Source: Escherichia phage mistaenkt. Taken from it: a DNA stretch of 64,000 bases. The stretch is from sequence record MN850587.1. The stretch is one strand, 5' to 3'. A program made the position numbers and the translations under genes. Numbering within the stretch: position 1 is the first letter of the stretch; every line of letters starts with the position of its first letter. This document shows positions 2,454-64,000 of the stretch, in pieces. The notes under the pieces were generated by a model. The model ran no database searches. It was not told where the DNA came from and worked only from the letters and a program-made list of their open reading frames with translations.

Positions 2454-4688
2454 TTAAACTCCGCAACCTTCACAGTAAGCGTCTTGGAGTGCTGACTTAC
2501 CAACACCAATACGACTGTTAAGGTAGTACATAGTTTTCATCCCAACTGAGTTAGCATAAATCATGTACTTCAAAGCTTGCTCTAATGATACCTTTTTCGA
2601 TTTTGAATAGTCAACATAGAAATCTGAAGAGATAGCTTGACCAGTGAATTTTTGAACAATTGCATAGCAATCAATCATATCAAAGGTGTCAATATCCCAA
2701 GCAATTTCATAGACATACTTCAACTCTTCGTAATCTGGAACGATAAATAAAACGTTACCAGTTGCTGACTTCTTGGTTAAGATGAAGTCACGAATTGGGT
2801 ACAAACCATTTGTCGTATTAGTTGCCAGTGAAGAACTCTCATTAGGCATGTAAGCCTCAAGTACAGAGTTTCTGATACCACCATTTGCTTTAATACGGTC
2901 TGCTAAGTCATCCCAATCATAACGAAGTTTTGCATCGTGTTTTGTATCAATCTTCCTGTTAGCTGTCTTCGGAGGAACCCAACCTTCAGGATACTTGGTG
3001 AACTTCATATATTCAGGTACACCACGCTCTTTTGCAAGTCTTAGTGAAGCCTCATGCAGATAGTAAGAGTGCATCTCTGCAAGTTCATGTAGCTTCGTTT
3101 TACCTGCTCTTGAAGAATAGTTCACGTAGTTCTTCGCAAGGTAGTGAGCCACATTCGTAAGGCCAATCCCAACAGAACGACGTTTCTGAACGTGGTTACG
3201 CATTGACGGATACGGATAGTCCATAAGGTCAATAACGGAGTCAACCATTGCAAGAGCATAATAAGCAACGTCAGCGTATTCATCTTCTGTGATTCTCCCT
3301 GCTACCAGACTAGCTAAGAAGCAAAGAGCAACTTCACCATCTTCTTTAGGTGCTGTGTAACTGTAAAGGTCACGTTCATCTTCAAACCCGTAAACTGGCA
3401 GTATAATTTCCATGCACAAGTTAGACATTTTCAAAGCTTCTTTAAACGGTGTGTGTGTGTTCGCATTGTTCGTAAAGAACGGATACACACGACCTGTGGC
3501 ATAACGTTGCTGGATGAACAGCTTGGCAACTTCACGAGCCTTAACACGTTTATGCTTAACACCTGAATGCACTGCGTGACCGACTGCCATAGCAAACTCA
3601 TCAGCAGATGCTGTGTAGAACATGTCATAAAGCTTTGGAGCGTCCTTGTAAGAGAACAGCAACCAATCTGTGTCATACTGTACACACTGCCAGAAATAGT
3701 CATTTGCACCAAATGAATAGTCCATCTCATTAATACGCTTCGAAGGAACCGTTGTAGGATGCTTCAAACGCAGTAAATCTTCAATCTGCGGGTCTAGGGC
3801 AGTATAGAAGTTGTTAGCTGAACCACCACGACTCTTCTGCTTATTGGCCTCTACAGCAGCACGTACAAGCTTGTAGTAAGGAAGCTTACCCATGTGTTCA
3901 ATGGTGTTTTGACGAATACCATCACCAATTGTACGGGTCTCCATAAGCATACCAATACCAGCTTGCTTGGTGGTCATATCATAAGCTACCTTAGTAGCAA
4001 TGCCAAGAGACTCAGCAGTGTCATTAGCCTTGATTAAGCAGCATGACGCATAACCTGACTTAGTAGCACGTAAACCATTCAGATAAGGCGTAGGGGCGTT
4101 AATCTTCAGGTCAGACAGGTAAGTGTACAGCTTGATAACATCTTCCAGTCTACGGTGCTTAGGTTGTCTCTCAAAGGCTTTCATAGCCATACCCATAAAC
4201 ATAAATTGTGGGGATTCAAACAGACGACCTGACTTGATATCTCGGATGCCATACTTGTCACGGAACTGTTTCAGTACTGCATAACCGTAAGAGATATCTT
4301 TTGAGTGAACAATGTGACCTTGTAAATAGTCAATCTCTTGTTCGGTGTAATCCATGTGTTCCCACAAACCCATTTGCTCCATCTTCATAACGAAGTTGAA
4401 CAGTTGAGGAACTTTTGTGAAACCACCAAAGGCTTCTTTGTAGATGATACCAAGGAGTAATCGACCAGCCATATCAGAGTACTCTTGAGTCTGCTTATCA
4501 ATACAAACGTCAATCATAGCTTGGTGCATCTCTTTGGTAGAGCAACCTTCATAAACACGCTTCATGGCTTCCATAGTTACTTCTGACCAAATGATTCCTC
4601 GTTTGTCAGCCCATGAAGCCCATTTGTTTAAACGTTCTGGTTCGAATGGCACGATTGTACCGTCAGATTTGCGAATGGTCTTAATCAT
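2454..4688 (-). CDS. nrdA: Ribonucleotide reductase class Ia large (alpha) subunit
   Basis: 744 aa; N-terminal ATP-cone (MIKTIRKSDGTIVPFEPERLNKW), overall RNR large-subunit character, operon with nrdB and glutaredoxin. Confidence 0.9.
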   Translation of the reverse strand: MIKTIRKSDGTIVPFEPERLNKWASWADKRGIIWSEVTMEAMKRVYEGCSTKEMHQAMIDVCIDKQTQEYSDMAGRLLLGIIYKEAFGGFTKVPQLFNFVMKMEQMGLWEHMDYTEQEIDYLQGHIVHSKDISYGYAVLKQFRDKYGIRDIKSGRLFESPQFMFMGMAMKAFERQPKHRRLEDVIKLYTYLSDLKINAPTPYLNGLRATKSGYASCCLIKANDTAESLGIATKVAYDMTTKQAGIGMLMETRTIGDGIRQNTIEHMGKLPYYKLVRAAVEANKQKSRGGSANNFYTALDPQIEDLLRLKHPTTVPSKRINEMDYSFGANDYFWQCVQYDTDWLLFSYKDAPKLYDMFYTASADEFAMAVGHAVHSGVKHKRVKAREVAKLFIQQRYATGRVYPFFTNNANTHTPFKEALKMSNLCMEIILPVYGFEDERDLYSYTAPKEDGEVALCFLASLVAGRITEDEYADVAYYALAMVDSVIDLMDYPYPSMRNHVQKRRSVGIGLTNVAHYLAKNYVNYSSRAGKTKLHELAEMHSYYLHEASLRLAKERGVPEYMKFTKYPEGWVPPKTANRKIDTKHDAKLRYDWDDLADRIKANGGIRNSVLEAYMPNESSSLATNTTNGLYPIRDFILTKKSATGNVLFIVPDYEELKYVYEIAWDIDTFDMIDCYAIVQKFTGQAISSDFYVDYSKSKKVSLEQALKYMIYANSVGMKTMYYLNSRIGVGKSALQDAYCEGCGV

Positions 4689-13477: not shown

Positions 13478-13734
13478 AATGCCCTCTTTTAAGTACCTAT
13501 TAAACTTAATCTGTTTTCTTTACGTATTCTATACGTATAACTTTAAAGCTTCTTAAAAGCTATTAAAAATCTTTTAAGGGTTTTAAAGAAACTGTATAGT
13601 TAATCTGTAAAGGGAGTCTTTTAAGTTAAAACCCACTTCGCAAAGATTAACACCTTGTCAAGTGAATTGTCAACTTGCTTTTTGAAACTTTTTGCAGTAA
13701 TGTATTGAGTCAATGATTTTGAGAGGGAGTAAAA

Positions 13735-18437: not shown

Positions 18438-19538
18438 ATGACAATTCTGTACAAACAAAATAAAGATGGTTCTTTCAACGTCTGGTCATGCGTTGCTGTA
18501 GGTGACAAAGTGGTTACCACGTATGGCAAAGAAAACGGTAAAATGATGTTTGAAGAGTACACAGCAGAACCGAAGAACATCGGTAAAAAGAATGAGCGTA
18601 ATGCTGAACAGCAAGCTCTCTTTGAAGTTACTGCTAAGTATAAGAAGCAAGTTGACCGTAAAGGTTATGCTTATTCAAAATCTGCTGCACAGGAAGTTGA
18701 GAAGGTTGGTGTACAGCTTGCTCATGATGCTTCCAAGGTTAGCCACAAAAAATATCTGAAATTTCCTGCTGATGCTCAACCGAAACTTGATGGTGTTCGT
18801 TGCAGAATTTCAAGGGATGTTGATTCAGTAAGCTTCACAGCTTATTCTCGTGAAAATACTGTTTACAATGTGCCTGAAGAGTTAATTCCTGATTTGCTTC
18901 TCATGCTTAAGTGTCACCCACAAGTTGAAGACTTTGACGGTGAGATTTATGCTCATGGCTGGGACTTAGAAGATATTGTATCCATGATTAAGAATGCTGA
19001 CAATCCAGACCGTCACCTTCTTAAATTCTACTGGTATGATATCTGTGACAATACTAAATCATGGCCTGAGCGACGAGAGGTTATTGATAACTCACCTATC
19101 GTTGAACTTGGTGATGCTTGCAGGGTTGTTCCTGTACAGACTATCCGTGTAAACTCTTGGGAAGAGTTCGACAAAGCCCATGATAATTGGGTTAAGCTGA
19201 AGTTTGAAGGGGCTATGTACCGTTCAATCTCTGAAGAATCTTTCTACGAGTGTAGTCACCGTTCATACTTCTTAATCAAGCATAAGAAGATGCACACTGA
19301 AGAGTTTAAAGTAACTGGTGTGAAGACTGATAAGCGTGGACATGGTAAGTTTGTTGTAGAGACTCTTCCTAACGTCTTTGTGGATGTTTCATGGAAGACT
19401 ACCCATGAGAAGAAACAGTATCTTGCTGAACACCCTGAAGAGTTTATCGGGAAGCCTTTGACGGTTCAGTTCCAGAAGATGACTCGCAAGGGGTCTTTGC
19501 AGTTCCCTGTTGGGTTAGTTATTAGAGATTATGAATAA
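18438..19538 (+). CDS. ATP-dependent DNA ligase (candidate)
   Basis: 366 aa; KxDGxR nucleotidyl-transferase motif I (PKLDGVRCRI), motif III-like FDGEIYAHG, motif IV-like EGAMYRS, motif V-like LIKHKK. Confidence 0.6.
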   Translation: MTILYKQNKDGSFNVWSCVAVGDKVVTTYGKENGKMMFEEYTAEPKNIGKKNERNAEQQALFEVTAKYKKQVDRKGYAYSKSAAQEVEKVGVQLAHDASKVSHKKYLKFPADAQPKLDGVRCRISRDVDSVSFTAYSRENTVYNVPEELIPDLLLMLKCHPQVEDFDGEIYAHGWDLEDIVSMIKNADNPDRHLLKFYWYDICDNTKSWPERREVIDNSPIVELGDACRVVPVQTIRVNSWEEFDKAHDNWVKLKFEGAMYRSISEESFYECSHRSYFLIKHKKMHTEEFKVTGVKTDKRGHGKFVVETLPNVFVDVSWKTTHEKKQYLAEHPEEFIGKPLTVQFQKMTRKGSLQFPVGLVIRDYE

Positions 19539-19544
19539 AAGTTG

Positions 19545-19572
19545 TTGACATACTCTCTCCGGTAGTTATACT
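19545..19572 (+). promoter_or_regulatory. Sigma70-like promoter TTGACA-N16-TATACT upstream of the secreted-protein gene
   Basis: -35 TTGACA at 19545-19550, -10 TATACT at 19567-19572; a 9-bp inverted repeat (CCGGTAGTT / AACTACCGG) brackets the -10 and predicted start. Confidence 0.45.
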
Positions 19573-19622
19573 AGCAATATAAAATTTGATATAGGAACTA
19601 CCGGATGAGTTAGGAGAAGAAA

Positions 19623-20003
19623 ATGAAAAAGATTATGGTAGGTGTCATTCTGGCAACTCTGAGTTTTGGTGCATCAGCTATGAAGATGCCTGAAGCAGAC
19701 TTTAGCAAGGTCTCTACAGAGGCTTGTCAGATTGTTCGTAAAGTCGTAACAGATGCTGGAGAGTTGGCTAAACCGTTATCTTCTCCAACTGTCATGGAAA
19801 TGTCTGACCGCATCACTGATTACAATTATCGTGTGATGGCAGATTACTACGAAGCTGTCTCTGATGCTATGGTCACTCAGGATATTGATTTGCTTGATGA
19901 CAAAGACATTGAGAAGGTTGAAGACACCAAGCGTGACATGATGGATGAAACTTTCAAAGGTGTTCATTATTTTGTTGAAAAGCGTACTTGTGTAGGTCTA
20001 TGA
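19623..20003 (+). CDS. Putative secreted/periplasmic protein (126 aa)
   Basis: N-terminal signal peptide MKKIMVGVILATLSFGASAMK; GGAGAAG RBS. Confidence 0.5.
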   Translation: MKKIMVGVILATLSFGASAMKMPEADFSKVSTEACQIVRKVVTDAGELAKPLSSPTVMEMSDRITDYNYRVMADYYEAVSDAMVTQDIDLLDDKDIEKVEDTKRDMMDETFKGVHYFVEKRTCVGL

Positions 20004-20004
20004 T

Positions 20005-20208
20005 ATGAAGAAGAATCGTTGCAAGAAGAACTATGGAGAAGTGCTTGACGATGAAGGTCATGTCATCTTCCGAGTTTACTGTGCAGATGACTCTGAAGTA
20101 GATAAAGCACTTGATGACTATATCAACGGTACTCGTGAAAACGTCAGAGCAACAAACATAGATTCATTGATTGACACTTCCAGAAAACGGAGGAAGAAAG
20201 ATGAATGA
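20005..20208 (+). CDS. Hypothetical small protein (67 aa)
   Basis: ORF track only. Confidence 0.35.
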   Translation: MKKNRCKKNYGEVLDDEGHVIFRVYCADDSEVDKALDDYINGTRENVRATNIDSLIDTSRKRRKKDE

Positions 20209-20500
20209 AGTCTTTGACCCTTACGCCCCACAAGATAAGTGGGAAGCTGATAGAGAGTATGAGATGGAAAGTTATATCTGCCCAATGGATGTAGACGAAA
20301 TGAGAGAGTTCGTTGCATTCCGTTTTGAAAAAGAAATTGAGAAAAGAAAACTTTCTCAGGCACAAGTTGCAAAGATTTGTGATATCTCTCAAAGTCGTGT
20401 TTCCAACATAGTCAATGGTACTGGAAAGATTACCCTTGAATACATGTTGAAAGCTTGTGAAAAACTTGGTGTTAACTTCAACTTAAGGCTGTCAGATTAA
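20201..20500 (+). CDS. Helix-turn-helix (XRE-like) DNA-binding protein
   Basis: LSQAQVAKICDISQSRVSNIVNG is a classic HTH; start trimmed to ATG at 20201 (GGAAGAAAG upstream). Confidence 0.55.
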   Translation: MNEVFDPYAPQDKWEADREYEMESYICPMDVDEMREFVAFRFEKEIEKRKLSQAQVAKICDISQSRVSNIVNGTGKITLEYMLKACEKLGVNFNLRLSD

Positions 20501-20501
20501 T

Positions 20502-20861
20502 ATGAAACGTGAAAATGCAATCTTCAAAGGTAACTTTGCAATTGGCTTCTATGGGAAACCTACCGAAGCTGAGAAGGTGTGGGGGCATGAGATTCTTGAA
20601 GAGATGATTCCAAAACTCCAAAAAGGAGAAATAAAACATTCTGAAAAGAATCGTGTGAAAGGTTATATGGCAATTGGTTCAGCTATATCCAACATCAAAC
20701 TTGAGACGACATGTGCAAAAGATGTTCGTAACTCATTTATAAAGGAACTCTTCAACAACCTTGATGGTGTAGATGCTACCGCTATCTGGCTTGATGTTGA
20801 TGGTGCTAAGTATACAACTTTCGTATTTAAAAATGAGGATATCAAATGTCTCTTCCCGTAA
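20502..20861 (+). CDS. Hypothetical protein (119 aa)
   Basis: ORF track only. Confidence 0.45.
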   Translation: MKRENAIFKGNFAIGFYGKPTEAEKVWGHEILEEMIPKLQKGEIKHSEKNRVKGYMAIGSAISNIKLETTCAKDVRNSFIKELFNNLDGVDATAIWLDVDGAKYTTFVFKNEDIKCLFP

Positions 20862-21346
20862 AAATTGACTTGTTCTTCGGATACAATCTGATGACAGGAT
20901 GTATGCTTAGTCTTCCAAAGTCTCCTTATCGTACTGAGAAAGGTGCTGTGAAACGTGCTGCACACTACAATAATGACTTAGGTCGTTTGCAGACGATTTA
21001 CAAGTGGCTTGAAGAAGATGGTCGAGTAAATGAGTACTTCCATAAACTTCGTATGGCTAACGAAGAAAATAAGATGGGCTATGAACTGTTCCCACGTCTT
21101 TACAAAGTGACTTCACCAACTTCTCAAACTTGGAATGAGAAGTCTATTGAGGGTTACAAAAAGGTCACAATGTCTCCGTTTAGTAGTGGTGCAGAGTTTG
21201 AGAAGCTACGTGAGATAATTTATCAGACTGTTGCAAAGCGTGTTGCAAAGGGTCTTTCTTATAATGAAAAGATTGACTGGAACACTCAAAAGGTTATACA
21301 ATTCTTTGCATACGATAATGACAAACAAACTTTTGTAGAGGTTTAA
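20846..21346 (+). CDS. Hypothetical protein (166 aa)
   Basis: ORF track only. Confidence 0.45.
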   Translation: MSLPVKIDLFFGYNLMTGCMLSLPKSPYRTEKGAVKRAAHYNNDLGRLQTIYKWLEEDGRVNEYFHKLRMANEENKMGYELFPRLYKVTSPTSQTWNEKSIEGYKKVTMSPFSSGAEFEKLREIIYQTVAKRVAKGLSYNEKIDWNTQKVIQFFAYDNDKQTFVEV

Positions 21347-21347
21347 C

Positions 21348-21866
21348 ATGAAGATTGGAAATAGCTTAACAGAGCCAGAAGCAATTCTACTTAAGGGTGT
21401 TATCAAAGAACATCTGAAAAATCGTAGACTTCAAGAGGGCACAATCCTTATTGAGACAAACTATGAAGCTGGAACGATTGAGTTTCTTGATGAAGATACT
21501 GGTGATGCACTTTGCCTTTTACCAACTCACCTCTTCACTACTGAATTTCGAGATTCTAAATCAATCTCTGTGAAGCTGGTTCCAAGCATTGAGTTGTATG
21601 AAGGTATGCAATACCCACGTAGCTTCAAAGCTTTACTTAACATCTTCATAGACGACATTGTAGATTTAGTAAGGCCAGAAGCTGGTGAGTATGTAATTAC
21701 TGCTGAGTGTCAGAATAGCAGCTACATCACTCTCGCTGGTAATCTCTCAACGATGAACTTCTTAGATTTCATCCCGAAACACTTTGAAGACTTCCTTTCA
21801 TCGTGTGGTGATGACCTTGATTTCATTGTAAAACTGGAACAAGAATATAAGGTGAATAAGAAATGA
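21348..21866 (+). CDS. Hypothetical protein (172 aa)
   Basis: ORF track only. Confidence 0.45.
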   Translation: MKIGNSLTEPEAILLKGVIKEHLKNRRLQEGTILIETNYEAGTIEFLDEDTGDALCLLPTHLFTTEFRDSKSISVKLVPSIELYEGMQYPRSFKALLNIFIDDIVDLVRPEAGEYVITAECQNSSYITLAGNLSTMNFLDFIPKHFEDFLSSCGDDLDFIVKLEQEYKVNKK

Positions 21867-22159
21867 AAATCTTTAAAGTTGAACACTGTTACATGCAGAG
21901 TGGTGAGCCAATTCGTTGTCCACATTGTGGTGGCACAGACTTCCAAGGTGAGGTTACAGATATCATCTCTGGTCATGTAGCAGAAGAGTATACTCGTTGC
22001 CGTGGTTGTATGAAGATTGTTTCATTTTGGGCTTATGGAAGTTATGAGCCACACCCACACATTATTTACCATCCAGTTAAAGTGGTTAAGAACGTCATCA
22101 ACTGGTTTATCATTAAGGGTTTTTCAAATGATTCGTTTAGTATTTGCAAGTGGTCGTAA
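21863..22159 (+). CDS. Small zinc-ribbon protein (98 aa)
   Basis: CPHCGG...CRGC pair of CxxC motifs. Confidence 0.4.
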   Translation: MKIFKVEHCYMQSGEPIRCPHCGGTDFQGEVTDIISGHVAEEYTRCRGCMKIVSFWAYGSYEPHPHIIYHPVKVVKNVINWFIIKGFSNDSFSICKWS

Positions 22160-22673
22160 AGGTGAGTTTGGTACTCCTGATGGGATGCCTTGGGAACGTA
22201 ATCGTGAAGATATGAAAGAGTTTAAAAAGCTGACTCAAAACCAGCTTGTAATCATGGGTAACGAAACTTTCAAGACTCTTGGACGAAAACCTTTACCAAA
22301 TCGTGAGAACATGATTCTGACAAACAACCTCCCATATTACGGGATAGACTTTGATAATGATGGCTTTGTATTTGCGAAGGTTGACCCAGATTCTTTTGGT
22401 GCATTCTTGAAGAAGATTGACAGCCAGATTGATGAAAACGTATGTGTGATTGGTGGTGCAAACATCTTAAAAGCAGCTTTACCGTTTGCTGATGAAGTTT
22501 ACCACACAGTTATCTATGAAATTACTAAAGAGCCAACTGTGTATCTTCCTGAAGAGGGATTCTTTGAGTATTTACACGAGCCTGAACTCTTTGCTAGAAT
22601 ACAGGCTAAACCTCTGGCTGATAAATCTGGGGTTGTAAATTTCTATGTTCCACAAGTAAGAGGACGTTTCTGA
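22128..22673 (+). CDS. folA: Dihydrofolate reductase
   Basis: 181 aa from ATG 22128; GMPWERNREDMKEF, VIMGNETFKTLGRKPLPNRENMILT and VIGGANIL match DHFR signature regions; immediately upstream of thymidylate synthase. Confidence 0.8.
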   Translation: MIRLVFASGRKGEFGTPDGMPWERNREDMKEFKKLTQNQLVIMGNETFKTLGRKPLPNRENMILTNNLPYYGIDFDNDGFVFAKVDPDSFGAFLKKIDSQIDENVCVIGGANILKAALPFADEVYHTVIYEITKEPTVYLPEEGFFEYLHEPELFARIQAKPLADKSGVVNFYVPQVRGRF

Positions 22674-22674
22674 T

Positions 22675-23571
22675 ATGTCACAAGCAGATGTAAGCTACAA
22701 AAATATTCTGAACCATGTTTTAACAGTTGGTGAGCAGCGTAAAACCCGAACTGGTTCTGTAATTTCAACGTTCTCACCTCCAGAGTTTCGTTTTGATATG
22801 CGTACTGGTTTCCCTTTACTGACCTCTAAACAGGTTCTGACCAGACAAGTTATCGGGGAAGCTTTATGGTTCTTGAACGGTGAGAATAAACTTGGTCATC
22901 TTCGCTATCGTACTTGGGGAGAAAACGATGGAGAGCGTTGGACAATCTGGACAAATGACTTTGAACGCTGGCTTAAAACAACCTATGCAAGTGAGCAAGA
23001 TTGGTTAGATGATGCAGGTGGACGAATCTACGGTGTTCAGTGGAGAGCCTCAGAAGGTCATGGTGGCGTTACAGTTGACCAGCTAGACAATCTGATTACC
23101 AAGATGAAAAAGTCTCCTACAGACCGTTACATGCTGGTTAACGCTTGGAATGCTGCTGATATCTCAGCTAACACAATGGCATTACCACCTTGTCATGTAC
23201 TTTTCCAGATTTACATCTCGAATACTGGTGAAGTGGATTTAAAATGGTATCAACGTTCTGTAGACAGCTTTTTAGGTTTACCATTTAACATTGCATCTTA
23301 TGGTTTTATCTTGGAAGTGCTTTGTAAGATGACTGGATATACACCTCGTTACTTGATTGGTACTTTTGGTGATACTCAGATTTATCAGAACCATATGAAT
23401 CAGGTATTCCAGCTTTTAGGTAATGAAGAGTTTCCTGCACCGAAGTTTGAGATTGTTCAAGATTTGAAATGTCTGGATGACCTCAAGCATATGACTGCAA
23501 GTGACTTTATCGGTGGTTTCAAAGATTATCGACATGCAGGGAAGATTGAAGCTCCCTTGTCAGTAGGTTGA
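22675..23571 (+). CDS. thyA: Thymidylate synthase
   Basis: 298 aa; active-site region ALPPCHVLFQIY with catalytic Cys, R-x-x-x-W folate-binding pattern. Confidence 0.9.
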   Translation: MSQADVSYKNILNHVLTVGEQRKTRTGSVISTFSPPEFRFDMRTGFPLLTSKQVLTRQVIGEALWFLNGENKLGHLRYRTWGENDGERWTIWTNDFERWLKTTYASEQDWLDDAGGRIYGVQWRASEGHGGVTVDQLDNLITKMKKSPTDRYMLVNAWNAADISANTMALPPCHVLFQIYISNTGEVDLKWYQRSVDSFLGLPFNIASYGFILEVLCKMTGYTPRYLIGTFGDTQIYQNHMNQVFQLLGNEEFPAPKFEIVQDLKCLDDLKHMTASDFIGGFKDYRHAGKIEAPLSVG

Positions 23572-23582
23572 TAGATACAAAA

Positions 23583-23606
23583 AAGGCTCCTTTTTACGGG
23601 AGCCTT
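23583..23606. terminator. Bidirectional intrinsic terminator between convergent thyA and the minus-strand structural block
   Basis: AAGGCTCC-8 nt loop-GGAGCCTT with T-runs on both strands. Confidence 0.7.
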
Positions 23607-62735: not shown

Positions 62736-62743
62736 AACTATAC

Positions 62744-62791
62744 AGCCCCTTTATATGGATTCGATAGAGTCTATCTCATAGGGGCTTTTTA
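62744..62791 (+). terminator. Terminator-like structure AGCCCCT...AGGGGCT plus T5 with nested GATAGAG/CTATC hairpin
   Basis: 7-bp outer stem with long loop and T-run; read directly. Confidence 0.4.
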
Positions 62792-62869
62792 TTGAGTAAA
62801 ATAATTTTTATAAAATTTGGATTCACTCCGTTCATCTTGGGTCACCATATCATGTGATAAAATATCTAC

Positions 62870-63160
62870 CCTTCTTAACATCCTACTTAATCTTACTCTC
62901 TATATAGTTATATAGTACTATATAGTATCTTAGTCCCTTAACAGTGAGTCTCTATAGCTCTCTGTATAACCCTTCTATCTAGCCCTTCAAGAAGGTCTTT
63001 AAATAGCCCTCTAAGCAATCCTCTTCCAAACCTATATAATCACCTTAACCACCTCTTCATATCCCCTTAGAAGCCCCTATACCCATCTTAATCTCTATGT
63101 CAGAGATAGTACCCTCTATAGGGTGTTCACTAGGTTCTACTAATCCTCTATATAGACTGT
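62870..63160. repeat. Cluster of short TATAG-core direct repeats (TATATAGT, CTCTATAG, TCTATAGGGTG) in non-coding DNA
   Basis: Read directly: ctctatatagttatatagtactatatagtatc, gtctctatagctctctgtataac, ccctctatagggtg, ctctatatagactg. Confidence 0.6.
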
Positions 63161-63379
63161 TTTAGCTAACTAAACAGGTATCACCTTCTAAGGCTTATCC
63201 TACAAGGTCTAACACGGTATTAACAAGGTATCTAATAAGCCTGTATTTACCTGTTTTATACAGAATACTATATAGATATTTATGCAATTCTTAAAATTTT
63301 TATAAAATAGAACTGTCAAGTCATTTTTTAGGTGTTATGAAGGAACTCAAAAATATCTGTCTAGGATGTATATCTGCTT

Positions 63380-63575
63380 GGTAGCCCTTAACAGCCCTGT
63401 AACATCCCCTTTGCAAAATCTTAAAATATCATTAACAATTTCTTAACAGATACTACATCCTCTTAACATCTCTTCAGAGTTCTTAACAGTTCCTTAACAG
63501 AACTAACAAGGGTGTAACAAGTTCTTAACAGTTGCTACATAGACTTTACAGAATCTTAACAGATTGCTAACAAGA
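63380..63575. repeat. Array of at least 9 copies of CTTAACA(G) / CTAACAAG direct repeats
   Basis: Read directly: tcttaacaga, tcttaacatc, tcttaacagt, tccttaacag, aactaacaag, gtgtaacaag, ttcttaacag, atcttaacag, tgctaacaag. Confidence 0.7.
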
Positions 63576-63840
63576 GCTAAGTAGTTAAATGTTAAGAGTT
63601 ATTTTGTTAAGATAATTAACAAGCTACTAACAAGTCTTTAAAGCTTTTAACATACTATTAACATGGTCACTATCTCTCTGTCTATAGTTCCCTGTCCTTC
63701 TCAGTGATTCTCTAAACATACCTCTTAAAAGCCCTGTATAGCTCTTTATAGCCCCTTCTAAGGTTCTCACTAGTATCTATAGCCCAACTGACTGTATAGC
63801 TCTTTATATCCCTTTACAGGGGCTTATATAGGGACTCCAA

Positions 63841-63912
63841 AGATTCTAACAAGGTTGTAACATGGTCTTAACAAGAATTTAACAAGGTGCTAACAAGTCT
63901 CTAACAAGCATA
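63841..63912. repeat. Iteron-like array: six TAACAAG-type repeats at about 11-bp spacing
   Basis: Read directly: ctaacaagg ttgtaacatgg tcttaacaag aatttaacaagg tgctaacaag tctctaacaag, roughly one repeat per helical turn. Confidence 0.7.
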
Positions 63913-63963
63913 ACTATGTAGGAGTTGTTAAGAATTTGTTAAGAAAATGTTAAGGGGGCTAGC

Positions 63964-64000
63964 TTTTACGTAACTTTATAGCCCCTTTTACGTAACTTTA
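63964..64000. repeat. Direct repeat TTTACGTAACTTTA x2 at the window edge
   Basis: cttttacgtaactttatagccccttttacgtaacttta read directly. Confidence 0.5.

Follow-up and report, generated by a model that had tools for sequence, protein, structure and literature searches.

The gene at positions 20201–20500 (+ strand) of the DNA analysed here, a 64 000-nucleotide stretch of Escherichia phage mistaenkt (MN850587.1; hereafter the window), encodes a 99-residue protein with an XRE-type DNA-binding domain of the HTH_37 subclass. Because it is dispensable in a laboratory host and absent from Erwinia relatives of the phage, the protein is more likely an accessory, clade-specific factor than a master temporal switch. 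We give about an even chance to a model in which it is a dimeric DNA binder of the HTH_37 class that is made in mid-infection and tunes its own operon and/or divergent control regions, probably by repression. The gene is already known and carries an annotation in over 250 phage genomes; the helix-turn-helix (HTH) feature has been annotated, by similarity alone, since the Felix O1 genome paper (PMC3185647).

The open reading frame (ORF) starts with ATG at 20201, ends with a TAA stop codon at 20498–20500 and is intact; its coordinates coincide exactly with those flagged in an earlier model reading that was made without database searches (the sequence-only reading). A Shine–Dalgarno sequence (GGAGGAAG; 20189–20196, + strand) was read from the DNA within the 3′-terminal part of the preceding ORF, and its GGAGG core, located 7 nt before the ATG, provides a strong ribosome-binding site. 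Because tblastn matched the protein in 258 phage records (nearly all at 60–100% identity and four under 60%), the gene is judged to be a conserved real gene and not a chance ORF. The source phage is assigned by sequence comparison to Suspvirus (Ounavirinae, Felix-O1-like). The gene region shares 96–97% identity with Escherichia phages EP1 and EcSzw-2, about 93% with SUSP1 and SUSP2 and about 75–78% with Felixounavirus and Mooglevirus phages, and the window carries a 24-tRNA cluster, as does Felix O1.

The protein is 100% identical to an EcSzw-2 'putative transcriptional regulatory protein' and 99 and 77% identical to its orthologues in SUSP1 (AVU07_agp035) and Felix O1 (ORF85/Felix01p155), respectively. 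These two, the wV8 'putative transcriptional regulatory protein' and PHROG 1373 represent the same gene (77–100% amino-acid identity and the same length), and the ORF85 orthologues occupy the same position in the interval between the ligase and dihydrofolate reductase (DHFR) genes. Full-length relatives identified by exhaustive profile search formed only three clusters at 50% identity, all from Ounavirinae-type phages, beyond which the matches were to generic XRE proteins; tblastn against plasmids returned only unrelated 200-residue XRE regulators in Acinetobacter. The gene is core in the enterobacterial Ounavirinae (Suspvirus, Felixounavirus and Mooglevirus). No Erwinia phage was found among the 258 tblastn matches, including the 27–29 Erwinia Ounavirinae records that share flanking DNA. 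In these Erwinia phages (Kolesnikvirus), which have the overall genome plan in common with the enterobacterial ones, the ligase gene is followed by one ORF and then by DHFR, and the whole seven-gene block is missing. Six-frame translation of the complete genome of Erwinia phage Harbringer gave nothing matching the family or the HTH_37 profiles (best E > 1).

The sequence-only reading had described the HTH as unambiguous, and the family and structure comparisons bear this out. The protein matched the Pfam families HTH_3 (PF01381; E = 6.5e-12, 45.8 bits against a cut-off of 23, residues 45–93) and HTH_37 (PF13744; E = 8.5e-8, 32.3 bits against a cut-off of 27), the two matches together spanning residues 40–96, and it matched PHROG 1373 ('transcriptional regulator') with E = 7e-26. 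Alignment with 14 HTH_37 proteins in hhalign gave a probability of 99.7%, restricted to residues 30–99. From the hhalign, PDB and fold matches, the HTH_37-class domain was assigned to codons 30–99 (20288–20497, + strand), with the HTH motif at about residues 49–73 (nucleotides 20345–20419) and the recognition helix at about residues 62–72 (nucleotides 20384–20416). The AlphaFold2 model folds as a compact bundle of helices in which helices 2–3 form the helix-turn-helix; the helices of the XRE fold comprise residues 31–48, 53–60, 64–72 and 79–88, and residues 31–90 have pLDDT values of 81–88. Foldseek retrieved XRE structures with TM scores of up to 0.84 on the target (0.65–0.75 for the top-ranked matches) and r.m.s.d. 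values of 1.6–3 Å. Among solved structures, the closest are those of small XRE dimers, namely 2o38, Mycobacterium tuberculosis HigA2, 4ghj, 2a6c, HipB and the controller proteins of restriction–modification (R–M) systems. The best sequence match in the PDB is M. tuberculosis HigA2 (7ewc; E = 0.0017, 38% identity over about 60 residues). Scores against NCBIfam antitoxin models were far under the cut-offs (Y4mF, 29.6 against 71.65; HigA, 25.8 against 47.7; HipB, 16.2 against 79), and PADLOC returned generic HTH matches only (e.g. 'Control_protein', E = 6e-5). The gene is the sole ORF of XRE/HTH_37 type in the window and in SUSP2. Its recognition helix (I62-S63-Q64-x-R66-V67-S68-N69-I70) is invariant or nearly so among orthologues of 55–99% identity, and the DNA-reading surface is therefore under selection.

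The domain is preceded by an N-terminal extension (MNEVFDPYAPQDKWEADREYEMESYICPM; codons 1–29, 20201–20287, + strand) that is acidic (net charge of about −6), aromatic-rich, lineage-specific and predicted with low confidence (pLDDT of about 51–53 for residues 1–30 in AlphaFold2). The mean pairwise identity is 74% for this tail, 71% for the HTH motif and 47% for helix 1; being conserved to the same degree as the HTH motif, the tail should have a function of its own. In hhalign, residues 1–29 did not align to the N-termini of HTH_37 proteins or HigA2. The 'NVFxDLGF'-type N-terminal segment of HTH_37 (model positions 1–20) was not found, the Pfam match beginning at model position 21, and no homologues of the tail were found outside Ounavirinae-type phages. 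One protein, P0057, shares the N-terminus only and seems to derive from a frameshifted copy of the gene.

The gene is the third of an operon (19623–23571, + strand) that encodes a 126-residue signal-peptide protein, a 67-residue protein, the HTH protein, four small ORFs, DHFR and thymidylate synthase, and it lies in a DNA polymerase/ligase/DHFR/thymidylate synthase module. Gene order in the block is conserved throughout the enterobacterial lineages, even where protein identity falls to 55%. A predicted σ70-type promoter (TTGACA-16-TATACT; 19545–19572, + strand; 11 of 12 consensus positions) lies in the intergenic gap after the ligase gene, and the operon was read as being transcribed by the host RNA polymerase. 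Three genera share the −35 context (AAAGTTGTTGACAT). The promoter in the window ('type A') directly follows the ligase gene, whereas that of SUSP1, SUSP2 and Felix O1 ('type B') follows extra DNA; two genes are inserted before the type B promoter in SUSP1 and SUSP2, and Felix O1 also keeps a type-A-like element. The operon is closed by a bidirectional intrinsic terminator (23583–23606), which is annotated in phage ASO1A and corresponds to t79/t80 in Felix O1.

The ORF directly upstream of the HTH gene (20005–20208, + strand; 67 residues, phrog_4473) overlaps its start by 8 nt (ATGAATGA), and translational coupling of the two is therefore probable. The two genes adjoin in all lineages examined and are without overlap in one of them; overlaps of this kind are the rule across the operons of the phage. 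The 67-residue protein has no match in Pfam, NCBIfam or PADLOC. Its AlphaFold2 model consists of a β-hairpin and helices (pLDDT of 67) and has no significant fold match in Foldseek (best E = 1.9). A toxin-like nature of this protein was rejected, given that it has neither a family match nor a fold match. No toxin match was found in Pfam, NCBIfam or PADLOC for either neighbour of the HTH gene (20005–20208 and 20502–20861).

Information on expression and importance was available from two relatives. In RT-PCR of Felix O1, the flanking ORFs 80, 83, 84, 87 and 88 were maximal at 25 min ('middle'), and ORF85 itself is not in the table; the literature on Ounavirinae transcriptomics or on characterized HTH repressors of virulent phages yielded nothing usable beyond this table. 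The earlier placement of the gene among early genes is thus loosely right at best, since it sits in a replication and nucleotide-metabolism module with Felix O1 neighbours that peak at 25 min. In a CRISPRi-ART screen of SUSP1 (PMC11879866), knock-down of AVU07_agp035 scored 0.37 (p = 0.20, 'Not Fit'), against 2.72 ('Fit') for the DNA polymerase; false negatives occur in this screen, the primase/helicase also being scored as 'Not Fit'. The proposal that the protein is a transcriptional timing regulator is not supported in the sense of an important switch, as knock-down of the SUSP1 orthologue had no measurable fitness effect and the block is absent from Kolesnikvirus.

Candidate binding sites were sought in the window and in related genomes. 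No perfect palindrome with half-sites of 5–8 nt and a spacer of 0–12 nt recurs in the window, so that nothing points to a palindromic operator in multiple copies. The leading candidate operator of the HTH protein, as judged from its position and conservation, is an AT-rich near-palindrome (ATATAAAATTTGATAT; 19577–19592, + strand) that overlaps the predicted transcription start (+1). With up to two mismatches allowed, it has no second match in the window and a single one, at the corresponding position, in the complete SUSP2 sequence. All lineages read retain it ahead of the operon, whichever of the two unrelated promoter types they carry, and Harbringer lacks it. The element could equally be explained as an AU-rich mRNA leader, and it may act in the RNA or in translation: it is part of the 5′ leader and falls within a hairpin whose arms covary, suggesting a function at the RNA level. 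An inverted repeat that flanks the operon promoter was also considered as an operator and was rejected, as its arms differ completely between genera with the pairing kept. Across four lineages, 9 of the 16 pairs of this promoter hairpin show a compensatory change and one G–U pair is tolerated. The arms vary while the recognition helix is invariant, and the repeat is therefore a structural hairpin and not a conserved protein site.

A further set of candidate sites is provided by the motif CTTTTAAG, which was observed 17 times in the window (4.8 expected), 24 times in SUSP2 (6.8 expected) and five times in Harbringer (4.0 expected), which lacks the gene; this correlation with the gene comes from one phylogenetic contrast only, that with Harbringer. 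Inverted pairs of the motif lie in two divergent control regions (13486–13625 and 55672–55751) and include a 9+1+9 palindrome (TCTTAAAAGGCTTTTAAGA). The motif is conserved in Felix O1. We infer from this pattern that the CTTTTAAG inverted repeats may be the second candidate sites of the HTH protein.

In the mechanism that we propose, the HTH protein would dimerize like other small XRE proteins, and the dimer would bind one or a few specific sites on the phage DNA, the best candidate being the unique near-palindrome at +1 of its own operon (ATAYAAAATTTNATAT). The bound protein would modulate, and most likely repress, transcription as a local fine-tuning device comparable to the autoregulators of antitoxin and R–M controller systems, and the N-terminal tail may mediate oligomerization or contact with a partner. 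A plain DNA-binding model leaves the equal conservation of the tail unexplained. The R–M controller proteins C.BclI, C.Esp1396I and C.AhdI, which are among the structural neighbours, are likewise small dimeric XRE proteins. They are autoregulatory timing devices that act on palindromes at their own promoter, and by analogy the same mode may apply to the HTH protein. Unlike the operons of these C proteins, the phage operon contains no R–M genes and no C-box-like tandem palindromes, only the single near-palindrome.

Two other roles on phage DNA were weighed against this mechanism. The sequence-only reading had named the protein as a candidate binder of iterons, and the iterons themselves are real: the non-coding region 62875–63950 contains 26 forward and five reverse copies of BTAACA(R), mostly with 11 bp phasing. 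VIPR vrRNA arrays (YNNGG repeats, reported for SUSP1) were rejected as an explanation of the iterons, since none occur in the window. Binding of the protein to the phased TTAACA repeats, with a function at a replication origin, in packaging or at a terminus, would fit the strong clustering of the iterons, their identical spacing pattern in Felix O1, momo and SUSP2, the conservation of the recognition helix across these phages and the absence of any other recognizable XRE protein in the genome. Harbringer, however, keeps the same array without the HTH gene or the seven-gene block and without a homologue or XRE/HTH_37-type ORF in six frames, which argues against the protein as an iteron binder and also as a master timing switch; nor does any of the 27–29 Erwinia Ounavirinae records with common flanking DNA appear among the tblastn matches. 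Dimeric XRE proteins moreover usually recognize palindromes and not same-orientation repeats at 11 bp phasing; the array is flanked by convergent transcription units, an atypical setting for a transcription switch, and no iteron is present at the gene's own promoter. We therefore assign the iteron reading a very low probability. The reading of the protein as a lysogeny repressor or Cro of a temperate phage draws support solely from the fold, the HTH_3 class being common to lambdoid Cro and CI, and from the labels 'repressor' or 'lambda-like transcriptional regulator' that the orthologue carries in some GenBank records. Against it, no integrase, excisionase or ParAB gene is annotated in the complete RefSeq genome of SUSP2, and no integrase, excisionase or partition Pfam domain was found in the larger unannotated ORFs of the window. 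Neither a divergent repressor/cro unit or switch region nor a C-terminal peptidase or oligomerization domain is present, and the gene is co-directional with, and embedded in, a replication operon. An 857 bp probe (20005–20861) had no blastn match in 5,426 complete E. coli genomes, and there are therefore no prophage copies in them. Ounavirinae are virulent phages. The genome is strictly lytic, in line with its earlier description as lytic-looking, and the search for integrase or ParAB genes elsewhere in the genome that the sequence-only reading had called for found none in the complete relative. Because integrase and Par genes and prophage copies are all lacking, a lysogeny repressor, already disfavoured in the sequence-only reading, is very unlikely, and that reading is effectively refuted at the lowest probability of any considered here; the protein is by default best taken as a regulator of the lytic programme.

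The remaining alternatives to the proposed DNA-binding mechanism place the function of the protein in interactions with a toxin or with non-phage DNA. It may be an antitoxin-derived counter-defence protein of the HigA2 type, in which the tail neutralizes a host toxin (RelE/ParE-like or another abortive-infection effector) or another host protein and DNA binding is secondary. HTH_37 is the closest class, and M. tuberculosis HigA2 is the best solved sequence relative; the C-terminal 70 residues are homologous to HTH_37 proteins including this protein and Vibrio cholerae HigA2, although the link of HTH_37 to antitoxins rests on PDB naming and the literature. The general plan, a short flexible N-terminal segment followed by a dimeric HTH, is also alike (PMC5416850, PMC8420761), and a low-confidence tail before a C-terminal HTH resembles V. 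cholerae HigA2, in which the disordered N-terminus binds the toxin (PMC5416850, PMC11006873). The conservation, acidity and lineage specificity of the tail fit such a role, a gene that is dispensable in laboratory K-12 and confined to the enterobacterial clade is what would be expected of a host-specific accessory gene, and a phage antitoxin mimic has a precedent (PMC11481870). The 29 N-terminal residues nevertheless have no detectable similarity to the N-termini of HTH_37 proteins or HigA2, the tail being unrelated in sequence, longer and Ounavirinae-specific. The NCBIfam and PADLOC results give no antitoxin assignment above cut-off, no related gene was found at the DNA level in E. coli genomes, and the invariance of the recognition helix speaks for the importance of reading DNA. 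Unlike HigA2-type antitoxins, moreover, the phage gene has no cognate RelE/ParE-type toxin gene and lies in a replication operon of a virulent phage. Counter-defence of this kind is in our view fairly unlikely. A toxin–antitoxin-like pair with the 67-residue ORF, in which the HTH protein would neutralize its partner and autoregulate, would agree with the 8 nt overlap, which suggests translational coupling, with the adjacency of the two genes in every lineage examined and with a toxin-first order that resembles higBA (PMC5416850). It is quite improbable all the same, given that the 67-residue protein lacks any family or fold match, that such overlaps are usual throughout the phage operons and missing here in one lineage, and that knock-down of the putative antitoxin was not deleterious to the phage. 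The protein might instead regulate non-phage DNA, either host promoters during takeover or the control regions of resident prophages or satellites. A multi-copy operator is not evident on the phage, the gene is an accessory one that is limited to its clade and dispensable in a laboratory strain poor in prophages, and a conflict between SUSP1-type phages and a satellite has been reported (bioRxiv 10.64898/2026.04.26.720920), which makes anti-element functions plausible in this lineage. This support is purely circumstantial and candidate sites are present on the phage itself, and we regard a non-phage target as unlikely. More speculatively, and with a low probability, an HTH_37/HigA2-type scaffold, captured by a virulent phage and fitted with a newly evolved, highly conserved acidic tail, could serve as an inter-element weapon, the tail neutralizing an abortive-infection toxin or a defence or satellite factor of Escherichia, Salmonella and Citrobacter, or the HTH silencing a satellite or prophage. 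If true, this would account for a gene that is core in enterobacterial Ounavirinae, missing from the Erwinia relatives and dispensable on defence-poor K-12.

For the family, the practical value of the finding is modest, and the evidence suggests that the HTH gene is of limited importance. The temporal regulation of Felix O1 is unexplained, and Felix-O1-like phages have no RNA polymerase and no recognized sigma or appropriator proteins (Whichard et al., 2010). As the sole recognizable XRE-type protein resembling a transcription factor, the HTH protein is therefore an obvious first candidate for a part in temporal control. Ounavirinae are also widely used as biocontrol and therapy phages, and the conclusion that a gene labelled 'repressor' in these genomes is not lysogenic supports their safety classification.

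The non-coding stretch at the end of the window (62736-64000), which continues past the window end and is flanked by convergent transcription units, contains a field of BTAACA(R) iterons. Between 62875 and 63950 there are 26 forward and five reverse copies (e.g. CTTAACAG and CTAACAAG), usually spaced by 11 bp, and at 63846-63953 six forward copies are followed by three reverse copies in a head-to-head block. The iteron hexamer differs from the -35 consensus TTGACA by one mismatch. Candidate roles for the array are those of an origin, a packaging site or a terminus. The spacing pattern is common to the window, Felix O1, momo, SUSP2 and Erwinia phage Harbringer.

An octamer, CTTTTAAG/CTTAAAAG, is over-represented approximately 3.5-fold and is concentrated in two divergent control regions (13486-13625 and 55672-55751). 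The clusters include a perfect 9+1+9 palindrome, TCTTAAAAGGCTTTTAAGA, at 55672-55690, and the minus strand of each control region has, in addition, a tandem GTTGACAA-N4-CTTGACAAG (13651-13674 and 55779-55802). The octamer is kept in Felix O1; in the Erwinia relative it shows no enrichment. Adjoining the tRNA cluster is a 471-residue minus-strand ORF (53785-55200) that matches DUF7788 (E = 2e-41) and DUF2828 (E = 8e-29) and is annotated in SUSP2 as an 'RNA-binding protein'.

A VIPR system consisting of a RAMP-like protein and YNNGG-repeat RNAs has been reported for SUSP1 in a 2026 preprint. The whole window was searched for YNNGG-type VIPR repeat arrays and none were found. In SUSP2 (approximately 18958-19460 in locus L003), outside the span of the window, a C/G-rich repeat, CCCCTCTCCCCCTCTTACTCCCCCTCTCCCC, is present together with repeated CATTTT..TTGTGCAGGT units.

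The promoter of the operon that contains the HTH gene is embedded in a hairpin (19558-19605). Its -10 element and +1 position are enclosed by a 9-14 bp stem, with the 5' arm lying within the -35/-10 spacer and the 3' arm approximately 30 nt downstream; the arms covary between genera, and RNAfold gives energies of -20 to -26 kcal/mol. Promoters within hairpins were also located in related phages at 2917-2960 in locus L005 and at approximately 3360-3410 in loci L011 and L012. SUSP1 and Felix O1 show a variant in which the -35 element is enclosed by a terminator-like hairpin. The early region of SUSP2 (L003, 19839-25491), outside the window, contains about ten near-identical promoter/stem-loop cassettes with the common leader CCTAAACTGGAGATTCAAAAATG, an arrangement presumably reminiscent of the T4-type promoter/stem-loop cassettes.

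Seven small genes, the HTH gene among them, form a conserved block (19623-22159), the other members encoding a 126-residue signal-peptide protein, a 67-residue ORF, proteins of 119, 166 and 172 residues, and a protein of about 90 residues with CxxC...CxxC motifs. In the 67-residue protein (20005-20208) the last 15 residues, DSLIDTSRKRRKKDE, are invariant across all homologues; the corresponding DNA is doubly constrained, as the HTH gene has its Shine-Dalgarno sequence and its start there too. All seven genes are missing from the Erwinia Ounavirinae, and the block may represent a host-specific accessory module.
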